A stretch of DNA of 32,000 nt from an uncultured bacterium (GTDB taxonomy: Bacteria; Auribacterota; JACPWU01). The notes beneath the pieces were generated by a model. The model searched no databases. It was not told the DNA's origin and worked only from the letters and a program-made list of their open reading frames with translations. The translations under genes and the position numbers were made by a program. The stretch covers positions 390,001 through 422,000 of the forward strand of contig CAZXEQ010000002.1 in the NCBI GenBank assembly GCA_964640155.1. The letters are read 5' to 3'. Position 1 is the first letter of the stretch. Every line of letters starts with the position of its first letter. Below, one piece after another: positions 17,002-30,400 of this stretch.

Positions 17002-17859
17002 TCACCCTATTCTTATCTGTTCATAAAACTCACGAATTTTTCTTGTCCCTTTTCTGGCAGGATCTTTACCAATGATTTTGTTGTCGGATTGAACCCACGG
17101 AATAATTCCCATCGAGGAATTGGTTAGAAAGGCTTCATCGGACTCAAGAATTTCTTCAGGCAAGAGAGAGCGAATTTGTGTTTTCAAACCTAAAGAAGCA
17201 GCACTTTGAAGAATGATTTTACGTGTGACTCCTCCTAGAACGCCATCTTCTAAAGGAGGTGTTAAAAGAAGGTTGTCTTGAAGTAAAAAAAGGTTACTTG
17301 CAGTTCCTTCCGTCAAAAGACCGCGTGTATTGAGGAAAATTCCTTCGTCATAGCCCTTCTCAAGGGCTTGCATACGCCCAAGAATATTATCCAGATAATT
17401 GAGAGATTTAATTTGAGACAGGGGGGATGTTTCATTGCGACGTGTGTTTAAAGTAAGGGTGCGGAATCCTTTTTCGTAGAGTTCTGGTTTAAAGGGGAGA
17501 AATTTTTTGCAAATGATCATGAGATTAGGTTTAGAAGGTATCATGGGAGGGACAGATCCCATCCACTTCCCCCGTGTGACCATGATGCGTACATAACAAT
17601 CTTCAAAGCCGGTTTGCTTTGCAACTTCTAAGGTGATTTTTTCTATTTGCTCTATAGCCCAAGCATGCTCTATTTGAAGTACATCAAGACCTTGAAATAA
17701 ACGTTCAATATGATGCTTTATCCCGATCGCCTTCCCTTTGAAAACACGCATGCTTTCAAAAACACCATCTCCAAAGAAAAGTCCTCGATCAAGAATAATT
17801 TCTGAAATTTCGTTTTGTTGAACGAACTGATCGTTTAGATAGACCCAAGTGTTTGTCAT
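17002..17859 (-). CDS. pabC: Class IV aminotransferase-fold protein, probable 4-amino-4-deoxychorismate lyase
   Basis: 285 aa with the class IV fold pattern (GDGVFESMRV, TEGTASNLFLL, GVLGGVTR). It lies immediately downstream of pabB on the same strand. IlvE or Dat cannot be excluded from sequence alone. Confidence 0.7.
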   Translation of the reverse strand: MTNTWVYLNDQFVQQNEISEIILDRGLFFGDGVFESMRVFKGKAIGIKHHIERLFQGLDVLQIEHAWAIEQIEKITLEVAKQTGFEDCYVRIMVTRGKWMGSVPPMIPSKPNLMIICKKFLPFKPELYEKGFRTLTLNTRRNETSPLSQIKSLNYLDNILGRMQALEKGYDEGIFLNTRGLLTEGTASNLFLLQDNLLLTPPLEDGVLGGVTRKIILQSAASLGLKTQIRSLLPEEILESDEAFLTNSSMGIIPWVQSDNKIIGKDPARKGTRKIREFYEQIRIG

Positions 17860-17890
17860 GAGTTTACTTTATTCACCTTTATAGCGATGT

Positions 17891-18032
17891 TATATATAAA
17901 AGTACGTTCTTTATAAATGCGGGTGACACTCGACGGGGTGCCCCATCGAGCGGAACTTTTTGTGAGCACGATGGGGCTGACGAGTGGCAGGACCCGTTTC
18001 TTTCCTAAAAGAACGCACTTTTTTTATATATA
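17891..18032. repeat. Composite imperfect palindrome filling the pabB-pabC spacer: AT-rich outer inverted repeat enclosing a GC-rich core
   Basis: The left arm tatatataaaagtacgttcttt (17891-17912) pairs with the right arm aaagaacgcactttttttatatata (18008-18032). The arms differ by one substitution and a 3-nt A/T-run length difference. Confidence 0.85.
17919..17996 (+). repeat. GC-rich 78-nt palindromic element, copy 1 (intergenic)
   Basis: 51/78 G+C. Internal stems are CGGGT/ACCCG, CACTCG/CGAGTG and CCCCATCG/CGATGGGG. It is the reverse complement of 18855-18932 at 69/78 positions with no indels. Confidence 0.85.
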
Positions 18033-18038
18033 GAATCT

Positions 18039-19457
18039 TTATAACTCCAAAAATATTTTCCCCTTTACCAGGGTTTCTTCGTATTCTGCTTGAGGATCTG
18101 AATCCCAGACAATTCCGCTTCCTACTTGAAAAGAAAGAGTTCCCTCATGATGAATTAATGTCCGAATGAGTATGGACAAATCAGTCATAGCATTAAATCC
18201 AATAACCCCGAAAGTTCCAGTATAAATATTTCTTCGTGTAGGCTCAAGTTCTTCTATAATTTGCATAGAGCGAATCTTCGGGGCTCCTGTGATAGAACCT
18301 CCAGGGAAGGTGGCTTTGAGAACATCAAAAACATCAAGACCTTCTTTTAAAGTTCCTGAGATATCTCCTGCTAAATGAAAAACAGTTGGATGTGTTTCAA
18401 TGCGCTTAAGATCAGACACATGGATAGATCCATATTCACAAACTCGACCTAAATCATTTCTTTCTAAATCAATAATCATGAGAAGTTCAGCGGCATCTTT
18501 TGAACTACAAAGCAGTTCTTCTTTTAGATTTTTGTCCTGTTGAGGCGTTTGTCCACGAGGGCGTGTTCCTTTGATGGGGGAGGTTTGAATGAATTTATTT
18601 TTGATTTTCAAAAAGCGTTCAGGGGAGAGGCTAAGAAGGGTTGCATCAGGGGTTCTAAAATATGCCGCATGAGGGGCGGGATTTTGAATGAGTAATTTTT
18701 GGAATAAATTAAAAGAATCCCCATGATATTCAGAAGTAAATCGTTGAGAAAGGTTGACTTGGTAAATATCTCCTTTAGCAATGTAGTCTTTTGCTTTTCG
18801 AATCGTTTCCAAATAATTTTTTTTGTCGAAGTTCGATTTCCAGTTAAACCGTAGCGGGTCCTGCCACTTGACAGCCCCACCGTGCTCACTAAAAGTTGCG
18901 CTCGGTAGGGCCCTCCGTCGAGTGTCACCCGCAACATCAATTTTCTTGGCAGATGATATTTCTAGATTTTTCTTTAATTCCAAAATTTTTGATTGAACAT
19001 CTTTTTGATTTTCTCCAGGAAGAGCAATAGCAATGATATTTCCTTTTGTTTCAAAAGAGTTATAAAGATAAGCACAATCGTAAAAACCCATCACAATATC
19101 AGGAAAATTTTGATCATCCTTTGATGGGTGGGGAGTACGTTCTAACTTTCTTGCAAAGTCATATCCAATATATCCGATGAGCCCCCCTTGAAAAAAGGGA
19201 GTTTCTGAAAAACCAGATGCGTAAGATTGATATAATTTCGACAATTCTTTTAAAGGGTCAGAGGAAGAAAAAGTTTTTATTTCTCCATTTCTTTTAATGA
19301 TTTCAACGTGGGATCCTTTGCTTTTGAAAATGAGAAAGGGATTGAATCCCATTAGAATTTGTTTTTCATGATGGAAAAAGAAAGAATAAGATTCTTGACT
19401 GAGTGAGAAAAAGACTTCAATGGGAGGGAGTTTTGGAGTCCAAGATTGAATTTCCAT
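18039..19457 (-). CDS. pabB: Aminodeoxychorismate synthase component I (chorismate-binding enzyme)
   Basis: GDIYQVNLSQRF, IDLERNDLGRVC and FPGGSITGAPKIRSMQIIEELEPTRRNIYTG are chorismate-utilising enzyme motifs. Pairing with a class IV aminotransferase favours PabB over TrpE. Confidence 0.82.
   Translation of the reverse strand: MEIQSWTPKLPPIEVFFSLSQESYSFFFHHEKQILMGFNPFLIFKSKGSHVEIIKRNGEIKTFSSSDPLKELSKLYQSYASGFSETPFFQGGLIGYIGYDFARKLERTPHPSKDDQNFPDIVMGFYDCAYLYNSFETKGNIIAIALPGENQKDVQSKILELKKNLEISSAKKIDVAGDTRRRALPSATFSEHGGAVKWQDPLRFNWKSNFDKKNYLETIRKAKDYIAKGDIYQVNLSQRFTSEYHGDSFNLFQKLLIQNPAPHAAYFRTPDATLLSLSPERFLKIKNKFIQTSPIKGTRPRGQTPQQDKNLKEELLCSSKDAAELLMIIDLERNDLGRVCEYGSIHVSDLKRIETHPTVFHLAGDISGTLKEGLDVFDVLKATFPGGSITGAPKIRSMQIIEELEPTRRNIYTGTFGVIGFNAMTDLSILIRTLIHHEGTLSFQVGSGIVWDSDPQAEYEETLVKGKIFLEL
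18855..18932 (-). repeat. GC-rich 78-nt palindromic element, copy 2 (in-frame inside pabB)
   Basis: Exactly 26 codons, translated as AGDTRRRALPSATFSEHGGAVKWQDP, and inverted relative to copy 1. Confidence 0.85.
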
Positions 19458-19501
19458 GGAAGTTTATGATCCTATACAAAAGTATGATCTTTTAAGAAGA
19501 G

Positions 19502-19512
19502 GCGGGTCCTGC
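19502..19512. repeat. 11-nt fragment identical to the element terminus (GCGGGTCCTGC)
   Basis: Identical to 18854-18864, in the 59-nt spacer between the acyl-CoA ligase stop and the pabB start. Confidence 0.45.
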
Positions 19513-19516
19513 TATT

Positions 19517-21223: not shown

Positions 21224-21308
21224 GTTCTAAAAATATACACGATTTTTAAGCAGAAAGGGTATTAAAAAAGGTATATGGAGGATAAATTCTCTCACTCCTA
21301 ATATGGAC

Positions 21309-21336
21309 TTGAATTTCAAGGGGGGGATGGTAAAAT
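21309..21336 (+). promoter_or_regulatory. Candidate sigma70-type promoter for the pgs cluster
   Basis: TTGAAT (21309-21314), a 16-nt spacer, then TAAAAT (21331-21336), about 30 nt upstream of the pgsB ATG. Based on pattern match only. Confidence 0.3.
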
Positions 21337-21366
21337 GCCCGATAAACTTAGGGGTTTTAAGGCTTC

Positions 21367-27484: not shown

Positions 27485-30400
27485 GTGGATCGGAAAAGAA
27501 AAAGACGCAGCTTGAAAAATCACAATACACAATCCCCCCTATCTCATTTACTTATTGAAAAGCTTAAACAAGCGCTTCTCTCAAAAAAATTAGCTCTCTC
27601 TCTAGAGAAAAAATTAAAAAGTTTTGGTTTTTCAAATCCTCAAACTGCGTTTAGAAATCTTTTAACCCTCAGTGAAAATCCTGTTGCACAACAGGATTTT
27701 TTTGAGATTTTAATCTATCTTTTAGAATTACTTCAGAAATCTCCCTCTTGTGATTTGTCGCTCAATCATTTCGAACGTTTCTGCGCGAATGTCTCTAGTC
27801 CCTCACGTCTCTATACTTTCTTAAAAAAAGCTCCACGTAGTTTTGAAATGATAATTCGTCTTTTTGGTACAAGTCCTGCGTTGTCACAAACTCTGATTCG
27901 CAATCCAGAATATTTTGATTGGCTCTATGACCCTTTTGTTTTAGATAGGACGTGGGGAAAAGAAGATTTTCATAATGAAATTGATGCTGTTCTTGAACAA
28001 ACTCAATATTCTACATCTGCATTAAATACGCTTAGACGTTTCAAACGCCGACAAATGTTAAGAATTGGTGTTAGAGACATGCTCTCTTTAAGTGATCTGG
28101 AAGAAACAACACGTGACATTTCATTTTTAGCAGATGTTTGTTTAGAATGGGCAATGCGTGTGGCGTATCGAGAGTTAAAAGTAAAATTTGGAGAGCCTCA
28201 ATGTGAAACAAATGTGAGTCAGCTTTCTTCTTTTGTGGTGATTGGAATGGGAAAATTAGGAGGACTTGAACTCAATTACAGTTCGGATATTGATGTGATG
28301 TTTGTTTATTTAGAAGAAGGGAAAAGTTCAGGAGGAAGCGAAAAATCAATCGATAATCATCGCTTTTTTACACGACTTGCTGAAAGAATGCTGCAAATCT
28401 TGAGCTCCATGACATCGGAAGGAACGGTGTATCGCGTAGATACACGTTTGAGGCCTGAGGGTGCTACAGGCCCTTTGGTAAGGTCTTTAGAGAGCTTTGA
28501 GCATTATTACGCGACGTGGGGGAGAGCTTGGGAAAGACAAGCCTTGATAAAAGCCAGGGCAGTTGCAGGCGATATCGCTCTTGGAGAGCATTTTTTGAAA
28601 ACGCTTAATCCCTTCATTTATCGGCGGTATATGGATTATCAAGCCATTGAAGAAATGAAAGCCATTAAGCTTCGTATTGAGGAAGAAGTGACTCGAAAAG
28701 GAGAAAATGCACGTGATGTTAAATTGGGGGTAGGAGGGATTCGTGAAATTGAATTTGGTGTTCAAATTCTTCAACTGTTGTATGGAGGGAAAATAGAATC
28801 TTTGCGACAAAGAGGGACTTTGGGTGCAATTCGTAGTCTCCAGCAAGAAGGTTTGCTCAAGAAAGAAGATGTAGATCTTTTAAAAGAGGCTTACGTTTTT
28901 TTAAGAAGGGTGGAACATCTTTTGCAATTGGAGCAAGAAAGACAAACGCATGTTTTGCCTGAGGATTTGGAGAGATTAGATTTATTAGCCCGTCGTCTGG
29001 GATATGCTTCAAAGGAAAAATTTTTGGAACAACATCAAGCCTATACGAAAAAGGTACATTCTTTTTATCAAAATGTTTTTTCAGATTTACAGGCATCAAA
29101 GAGGACAGAAAATCCGCTAGCTCATTTTTTTGAGACAGGAGAGTTGACAGATGAAGAAAAAAAAGTATTCCAAAATTTAGGGTTTAAAGATATCGAAAGC
29201 GCAGCAAGAAATTTTTTGTCTTTGTCTCGGGGACAAGATTATACGCATATTTCATCAGAGACTTTGCGTGATTTTATGAATTTTTTACCCATTCTTTTGA
29301 AAGCCCTTGAAAAATCATTTGATCCAGACCAGTCTTTGATTGGATTAGAAAGGTTTATTACTTCTTATCAAACACGAAGTGGGTTTTTTCAAACGCTTCA
29401 GTCTAGTGAAAAGTTGTGCGAGCTTTTGGTCTTACTTTTTGGTTTAAGCCCATTCTTGGGAGATATTCTGATTCGCAATCCTCATTTTTTTGATTTTGTT
29501 GCAAGTGGGATGTTTGAAGAAAATTATTTCGAAGAAACAGGTCATGATTGTATGCATATCCTGGAGAAAACTCATGATTTTGAAAAGAAAATTTTAATGC
29601 TTCGAGAGTATCGAGACTTAGAAATCTTGAAAGAGGGATTAAGGGATATTTTAGGATTACATGTTTCAATGCAAGTGATCGAGGGGCTAAATCTTCTTGC
29701 AGAAAGAGTTATGATTTGTGCTTTTGAAATTTCAAAAAATTTTTTCGAAGAAAAATATCATCGTCTTTGTCCTTCTCTGGCGGTTATAGGCCTTGGAAAA
29801 TTAGGGGCGCATGAACTCAATTATGCCTCTGATTTAGATGTTCTTTTTGTAGGGCCTGAAAATCAGGAACAACTTCAAGAGGCTTCTCGTTTAGCCAACA
29901 TCTTCATGGATGTTCTGTCAGGGAAGATGACAGGTAAGGCTTTGTATGAAGTGGATACTCGCCTAAGACCCGATGGTTCTAAAGGACCTTTGGTTCCTTC
30001 TCTAGGGGCTTGCCGGGATTATTATCAAGCTTCGAATGCGATTTGGGAAAGAATGGCTTTTACAAAGGCTCGTTTCATTGTGGGAGATGAGACTTTAGGA
30101 AATGCGGCAATCCATCTTCTTTCGCAATTTGTATTTCAAAATCTTCCTATGACAACGCAAGTTGAAGAAATTAAAAGTCTACGTGAACAGATTTTTCAGG
30201 AACGCTGTAAAGATTTACCTGAAGGTTTTGAAGTGAAATCGGGCATAGGGGGTCTTTTAGATATTGAATTTCTTGCGCAATTTCTGCAATTGAAGTGGGG
30301 ACAAGAACATCCAGAATTAAGACAATCTCACACTCTTATTTTACTTCAACGCCTTGCTTCTAGTGGCATTTTACCTCAAGAAGAGGTAGGGCTTTTGGTC

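Follow-up and report, generated by a model that had tools for sequence, protein, structure and literature searches.

A 32,000-nucleotide stretch of DNA from an uncultured bacterium of the Auribacterota (contig CAZXEQ010000002.1 of assembly GCA_964640155.1, positions 390,001 to 422,000 of the forward strand; hereafter the window) carries, within pabB, the gene for aminodeoxychorismate synthase component I, a 26-codon segment that is, on comparison with the sequences of relatives, an insertion. The inserted DNA is a GC-rich hairpin of which further copies are found in the window and in other genomes, and on the sequence evidence the family is dispersed, with insertion positions that differ between genomes. 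We consider it probable that a mobile hairpin repeat has inserted in frame, as a tolerated selfish element, into a linker of PabB, and that it is translated as a disordered loop in an enzyme that continues to function.

An in-frame insertion in pabB

As had been predicted from the sequence of the window alone, pabB holds 26 extra in-frame codons: a segment of 78 nt is read as residues 176-201 of the 472 that make up the protein, its minus-strand DNA (GCGGGTGACACTCGACGGAGGGCCCTACCGAGCGCAACTTTTAGTGAGCACGGTGGGGCTGTCAAGTGGCAGGACCCG) translating to AGDTRRRALPSATFSEHGGAVKWQDP. Its GC content is 65%, against about 38% for the pabB gene. The profile search program nhmmer places this copy at positions 37-131 of the model of the element, and the profile alignment may reach window position 18839. 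The description of the segment as lying immediately before the W-x-S-N region that opens the chorismate-binding core is roughly right, with four residues (LRFN) standing between the end of the copy and WKSNF.

Alignment with orthologues, suggested as a way of deciding whether the 26 residues are lineage-specific, indicates that they are. All 16 aligned PabB homologues, the closest included, are gapped at these residues. Apart from the window's own protein (P0001, 100% identical), the closest PabB in 5.8 billion proteins is P0002, a protein of 448 aa with 74% identity (BLASTP) from the metagenome-assembled genome (MAG) GCA_041906865.1, which carries the NCBI label Candidatus Auribacterota (a PVC-group phylum). 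At the locus of this sister MAG that encodes P0002 (L050) gene order is the same as in the window, and the pabB DNA aligns on either side of a clean gap. The ribosomal-protein operon of the sister MAG shares 88-90% DNA identity with the window; the two genomes are related yet clearly distinct. The cluster formed by the AMP-dependent ligase gene, pabB and pabC is also found in three further loci (L054, L061 and L063, 21 kb each), in which no copy of the element was found; none of the three insertions that we describe in and around pabB in the window is present in any of the four syntenic relatives. The NCBI labels of these relatives conflict, the L050 MAG being assigned to Candidatus Auribacterota and the PabB proteins of L061 and L063 to a 'Chlamydiae bacterium'.

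The gene that hosts the insertion appears to encode an intact enzyme. Its open reading frame (ORF) matches the Pfam domains Chorismate_bind (E=1e-91) and Anth_synt_I_N (E=2e-21), and its best matches among solved structures are 7qu9, 7pi1 and 1k0e (E about 1e-83), which represent PabB of Bacillus subtilis and Escherichia coli. The protein keeps the family-invariant columns P294, I295, K296, G297, T298 and R299, S278, P279 and E280, and E458, Y459 and E461, and also retains the C-terminal EYEET of the catalytic core; the lysine of its PIKGT motif we take to be the equivalent of E. coli K274. An AlphaFold2 model of the protein has a mean predicted local distance difference test score (pLDDT) of 86.8 and a predicted template modelling score (pTM) of 0.87, and its superposition on the PabB structures of E. 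coli and B. subtilis gives template modelling (TM) scores of 0.81-0.85 (0.85 for E. coli). Residues 170-200 are the only ones with a pLDDT below 50 (30-38), the remainder of the chain being modelled at about 90. The insert is located between the helix of residues 151-166 and a short strand ahead of the helix of residues 212-227, in a linker that varies in length among PabB homologues. Structure prediction, which had been put forward as a check on where the insert sits in the fold, thus placed it in a disordered loop; the catalytic motifs are intact in the sequence. The simplest reading of the model is that the insert would be a tolerated, disordered surface loop, and we infer that it is translated and that the enzyme remains active.

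Copies of the element in the window and in other genomes

The coordinates of all copies, and of the genes that host or adjoin those around pabB, are collected in Table 1. A full-length copy occupies the spacer between pabB and its downstream pabC-like partner; its core is 88.5% identical to the pabB copy, from which it lies 860 nt away in the opposite orientation, and the match between the two is absent from 100 shuffled sequences. A covariance model built on six copies assigns 99-104 bits (E about 1e-24) to both window copies and finds, in a scan of the 32-kb window, no further match beyond these two. With nhmmer we located a truncated third copy, aligned to model positions 103-145, that is absent from the original prediction. 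Comparison of spacer lengths with relatives is consistent with insertion at both intergenic sites: the pabB-pabC spacer measures 179 nt in the window and 12 nt in L050, and the spacer between the AMP-ligase gene and pabB measures 59 nt in the window and 6-7 nt in two relatives (6 nt in L050). The extra 53 nt at the latter site (19460-19512), which lie between the AMP-ligase stop codon and the pabB start, begin with GCAGGACCCGC and continue with right-arm sequence. Taken together, the pabB, spacer and truncated copies therefore amount to three element-derived insertions in or around pabB.

Seven copies, from at least four assemblies, could be compared over the 32-kb window and the recovered loci. 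The copies on L047, L050, L052, L053 and L055 score 78-105 bits with the covariance model. Pairwise identity of the 78-nt cores is 81-92%, with no grouping by genome. The spacer that holds the L050 copy is empty both in the window (21224-21366) and in L054, which provides a reciprocal pair of filled and empty sites; three sites hold a copy in the window alone and a fourth in L050 alone. The copy shared by L052 and L053 has shorter and different arms and a stem in which strong divergence is offset by compensating changes; its host looks more distant and higher in GC content. Neighbours of the copies include genes for ThyX, an amino-acid permease, MerR, a hybrid kinase, an HTTM protein and similar products. 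The ThyX homologue next to an L047 copy (L047 62-1363, plus strand) contains two Thy1 stretches and, at 433 aa, is roughly double the normal length.

Table 1. Coordinates of the copies of the hairpin element and of the genes of the pabB cluster (window positions unless a locus is named)
Feature	Locus	Coordinates	Strand	Details
GC-rich 78-nt hairpin core, in-frame in pabB (residues 176-201)	window	18855..18932	-	covariance model 103.6 bits
Full-length copy in pabB-pabC spacer: core 17919-17996 with AT-rich inverted arms	window	17885..18031	+	99.3 bits; nhmmer E 3e-45
Truncated copy upstream of pabB start: last 11 nt of core (GCAGGACCCGC) with right AT-rich arm	window	19473..19515	-	nhmmer E 1.2e-4
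pabB (aminodeoxychorismate synthase component I), 472 aa, intact	window	18039..19457	-	Pfam domains, structure matches
pabC-like gene (class IV aminotransferase fold, aminodeoxychorismate lyase family), downstream partner of pabB	window	17002..17859	-
Two sister-MAG copies	L047	1412-1495 and 4321-4402		among thyX, permease, merR and kinase genes
Sister-MAG full-length copy in Mur-ligase-like/AMP-ligase spacer	L050	8132-8213	+
Same copy in two JGI metagenomes	L052; L053	11146-11226; 5456-5536		antisense to 661-aa membrane-protein gene, 2 nt past its stop codon
Copy in Logan assembly	L055	2100-2181

Wider searches of DNA collections returned few further copies. A scan with the 18-mer GCGGGTGACACTCGACGG over a collection of genome contigs from which the window's genome is absent gave 49 loci, only L047 being a real copy; the other 48, from high-GC genomes, were set aside as chance hits whose similarity stopped at 19-21 nt. 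A two-gap pattern search gave no match in viral contigs and only two loci in metagenomes, representing the same insertion in two samples.

At the protein level, a peptide profile built from the five open frames joined by X returned only a spurious 83-aa ORF on L047, and a single-sequence search with the consensus peptide returned no match. Both are uninformative, not negative, because neither recovered the positive control, the window's own PabB (P0001). A HMMER scan of 1.84 billion representatives with a 30-aa peptide from the window matched only a spurious 56-aa ORF over an intergenic copy. The parallel that had been drawn with Rickettsia, where palindromic elements insert in frame into protein genes, is supported by one in-frame copy and remains a single instance, and the attribution of a Rickettsia-like habit rests on one case because no second in-frame copy was found. 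Small ORFs begin inside or run through several copies, at 18608-18940 (minus strand) and 17984-18169 (plus strand) of the window, on L047 (P0121) and at L055 2063-2233 (P0122); two of them have been deposited as predicted proteins and look like spurious calls from a stop-poor, GC-rich repeat.

Structure of the element

All copies fold into the same hairpin, with predicted free energies (dG) of -33 to -42 kcal/mol. The hairpin of the pabB copy (dG -37.4 kcal/mol, z -3.3) is no weaker than the others. Sequence is conserved across copies at the 5' end (GCGGGTGAC), in the apical region (GCAACTTTT.GTGAG) and at the 3' end (GGCAGGACCCG), and differences in the stem are compensated, as in CACTCG/CGAGTG versus CGTTCG/CGAACG and CCCCATCG/CGATGGGG versus CCCCGTCA/TGACGGGG. 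In the six-copy alignment 94% of cells hold standard pairs, compared with 88.5% in column shuffles, of which 0 of 500 come up to the value observed; in four pairs both partners have changed, and slid controls are 32-48% paired. Drawn from six related sequences, this covariation is supportive of a conserved stem and not proof of it. The element had been called palindromic. Under the covariance model it reaches about 100 bits on the forward strand but no more than 25 on the reverse, and we therefore describe it as an asymmetric imperfect hairpin and not a true palindrome.

The length first proposed, exactly 78 nt, describes the GC-rich core and not the family. Five intergenic full-length copies carry additional AT-rich inverted arms that bring their total to about 125-150 nt, the left arm reading roughly AAAGTryGTTCTTTATAnAT and the right arm roughly CTACyTTTTCAAAA..ACACTTT, and these arms belong to the element because empty sites are without them. 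In the pabB copy a left arm cannot be recognised, and of the right arm no more than a few bases are present. CTAC stands directly 3' of the core in four of the seven copies (18851-18854 in the window, L047, L050 and L055), and reads as GTAG on the reverse strand; the remaining 3' flanks are CCAC (GTGG on the reverse strand), TTTC and CGTT.

The intergenic copy is, as had been noted, free of stop codons in five of its six frames. The further claim that the element thereby tolerates translation gains no support from this, as five open frames are not unusual at 65% GC: shuffles have a mean of 3.1 open frames and reach five or more with P=0.11, and the pabB copy, like other copies, has only three of six frames open. 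We therefore rejected the idea of open frames as an adaptation to translation, the shuffle test revealing no excess over GC expectation.

Comparison with known repeat families

A literature search on the terminal sequences returned only unrelated primer matches and, among the papers searched, no description of the element sequence, and the family appears undescribed. [quoted passage not shown] RPEs, with dozens of in-frame cases (Ogata et al. 2000, as summarised in PMC10969869 and PMC3733652), are, as far as those summaries describe them, similar to the present family in being small palindromic repeats dispersed between genes and also inserted in frame in housekeeping enzyme genes, where they add a peptide at a surface-exposed, tolerant position, and in a full-length size similar to the 125-150 nt observed here. 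They differ, within the same summaries, in host, which is here an uncultivated PVC-group bacterium and not Rickettsia, in the number of in-frame cases (dozens, against one here) and in that the in-gene copy described here is a bare GC-rich core without arms. They are also described as ending in CGTC (PMC3733652), whereas the present family is bounded by GCGGGTGAC and GGCAGGACCCG, often followed by CTAC, and has no terminal CGTC. By this terminal tag the element is not a member of the RPEs.

REP sequences tagged with GTAG are reported from PVC bacteria and occasionally from inside genes, and are mobilised by RAYT tyrosine (HUH) transposases (PMC3733652). The present element resembles them, and REPINs, in being a strand-asymmetric hairpin whose stem covaries and whose unpaired bases are conserved. 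GTAG abuts the stem on the reverse strand in four of the seven copies, and GTGG in a fifth. It differs from them in size and layout, REPs being 20-40 nt long and the present core a single 78-nt hairpin with asymmetric internal loops and no obvious doublet; no RAYT gene was found nearby, and the tag is not invariant. The CTAC/GTAG flank that recalls GTAG-tagged REPs can be regarded only as a lead, and the unpaired bases, covarying stems, asymmetry and frequent GTAG would weakly hint at a transposase of HUH/RAYT type that recognises hairpins in single-stranded DNA.

A classical MITE may be indicated instead by the inverted, AT-rich arms and by short direct repeats that are possibly present. With bacterial MITEs such as Correia/NEMIS, ERIC, RUP, Nezha and QMITE1 the element shares its non-coding nature, a length of about 125-150 nt, inverted arms and a long hairpin, as well as presence that differs between related genomes, truncated copies and occasional in-frame fusions. 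It departs from them in that its most conserved part is the internal GC-rich core and not the termini, that its candidate target-site duplications are weak matches and that no insertion sequence is known whose ends match and which could be its parent. Of the properties by which MITEs are recognised, the element has only some: inverted arms, dispersed copies and presence/absence variation.

Explanation of the insertion

In the explanation that we favour, a small non-autonomous hairpin repeat, similar to RPEs, REPs or MITEs, would have been copied into a length-variable surface linker of PabB after the window lineage split from its closest sequenced relative, arriving either as a bare core or as a full-length element that was later trimmed. 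The 26-codon piece that is retained is free of stops in the frame used, and pabB therefore stays open. The element would most likely be translated as a disordered loop of 26 residues, a tolerated selfish insertion and not an adaptation.

Several observations weigh against this explanation. The family has provided one in-frame case only. No transposase was found in the window or beside any copy. Candidate target-site duplications, obtained by comparing filled with empty sites, are TATAAAG at the pabB-pabC spacer and CTTCAC..AT at L050, AT-rich and imperfect matches that fall short of a convincing duplication; the pabB copy shows no such repeat. The right junction of the pabB copy was not recovered from the assembly of run SRR8893623 by exact look-up of PabB and of the predicted C-terminal fragment. 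Finally, cores are 88-92% identical between genomes, a value like that of ribosomal operon DNA (88-90%) and above that of pabB; conservation at this housekeeping level means that functional constraint, rather than pure selfishness, could be at work.

Such constraint would be expected if the hairpin were mainly a functional structured module of RNA or DNA (an mRNA stabiliser, an attenuator, a protein-binding site or a small-RNA gene), with the pabB copy regulating pabB, a possibility that we regard as unlikely. It would fit the conservation of the ends and apical loop and the covariation of the stems across genomes, a cross-genome identity that matches or exceeds that of housekeeping DNA, the clustering of three copies around one operon, and the upstream TTTATAnAT and downstream T-rich tract that intergenic copies share. 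Recognition of the hairpin by a transposase, however, would lead one to expect covariation just as much. The copies stand in mixed orientation to neighbouring genes, closely related genomes have their insertions at different sites, and in four syntenic genomes the operon is present but the element is not. Rfam 15 gives no match at gathering scores (the best permissive match, at 18 bits and E 0.26, is to a eukaryotic small nuclear RNA model), and no pattern resembling a sigma-70 promoter or an intrinsic terminator is present at any of the three window copies.

More speculatively, the core might represent a new class of large single-strand mobile hairpins recognised by their structure, a giant GTAG-tagged, REP-like element that is moved by an enzyme of HUH/RAYT type and seeds protein loops across PVC-group genomes in the way of RPEs in Rickettsia; its conserved loops and covarying stems would then be due to recognition by the transposase. 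Alternatively, it might be a conserved functional RNA domain turned mobile. We consider this doubtful.

It is also conceivable, and in our view quite improbable, that the insert is not translated as written, either because pabB is turning into a pseudogene or because the hairpin is skipped or removed, for instance by translational bypassing. Bypassing is exemplified by gene 60 of phage T4 and by the GC-rich 'byp' elements of yeast mitochondria, and in favour of this reading the segment forms, within an AT-rich gene, a GC-rich hairpin of high stability (dG -44.6 kcal/mol over 111 nt). The frame is nevertheless open, the length of the insert is a multiple of three and the 472-aa ORF keeps its family-invariant residues, and bypassing is therefore unnecessary. 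Nor was a matching pair of take-off and landing codons seen on inspection of the sequence: take-off would be at GTT, and the sole nearby downstream GTT is directly before TAA.

The possibility of an assembly artefact was raised with the original prediction; in the form of a repeat-induced misjoin, or of a larger insertion collapsed between two copies, we now find it very improbable. The repeated nature of the element, the breaking of short-read contigs within it and the missing independent right junction are all compatible with such an error. Logan contigs of run SRR8893623 are, however, 100% identical to the window, and one of them (L060), which corresponds to window positions 29163 down to 18872 (10,292 nt) and starts among upstream genes, connects pabB, from its start to codon 175, with 61 nt of the element, copy-specific variants included, so that the left junction is reproduced at full identity in an independent assembly. 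A second contig (L059) starts inside the intergenic copy, at window position 17950, and continues through pabC. These contigs end inside both copies, as is expected of a multi-copy repeat in a de Bruijn graph assembly, and the 31 nt ahead of the L060 break are identical to the copy in the L050 sister genome, which suggests, from sequence, that many near-identical copies are present in the sample. At 78 nt the insert is probably below typical short-read length; moreover, both halves of the pabB copy hold substitutions that are not seen together elsewhere, and its flanks align to orthologous pabB with exact in-frame resumption.

The converse scenario, in which the 26 residues are ancestral in PabB and were lost by relatives, the intergenic copies being derived from the gene, is effectively refuted by their absence from all 16 homologues, the four syntenic relatives included, by the occurrence of the same sequence, with extra arms, at unrelated intergenic sites of other genomes, and by its GC content, so different from that of the gene.

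Elsewhere in the window, diverged direct repeats at 27860-28305 and 29435-29850 (72-74% identical) lie inside a 1039-aa GlnE gene and correspond to its two homologous adenylyltransferase halves, an ordinary feature of this gene.

Implications

Recognising the element improves the annotation of these MAGs, as it interrupts short-read contigs and gives rise to spurious calls of small ORFs such as P0121 and P0122. The locus also offers a defined test system, in which PabB can be compared with and without the 26 residues and in which three nearby copies represent a bare core, a full-length element and a truncated one. The best-documented cases of selfish palindromic repeats colonising enzyme genes in frame come from Rickettsia, and such colonisation constitutes a route to new surface loops; a clean case of filled and empty sites in an unrelated, uncultivated lineage of the PVC group indicates that the phenomenon is broader.

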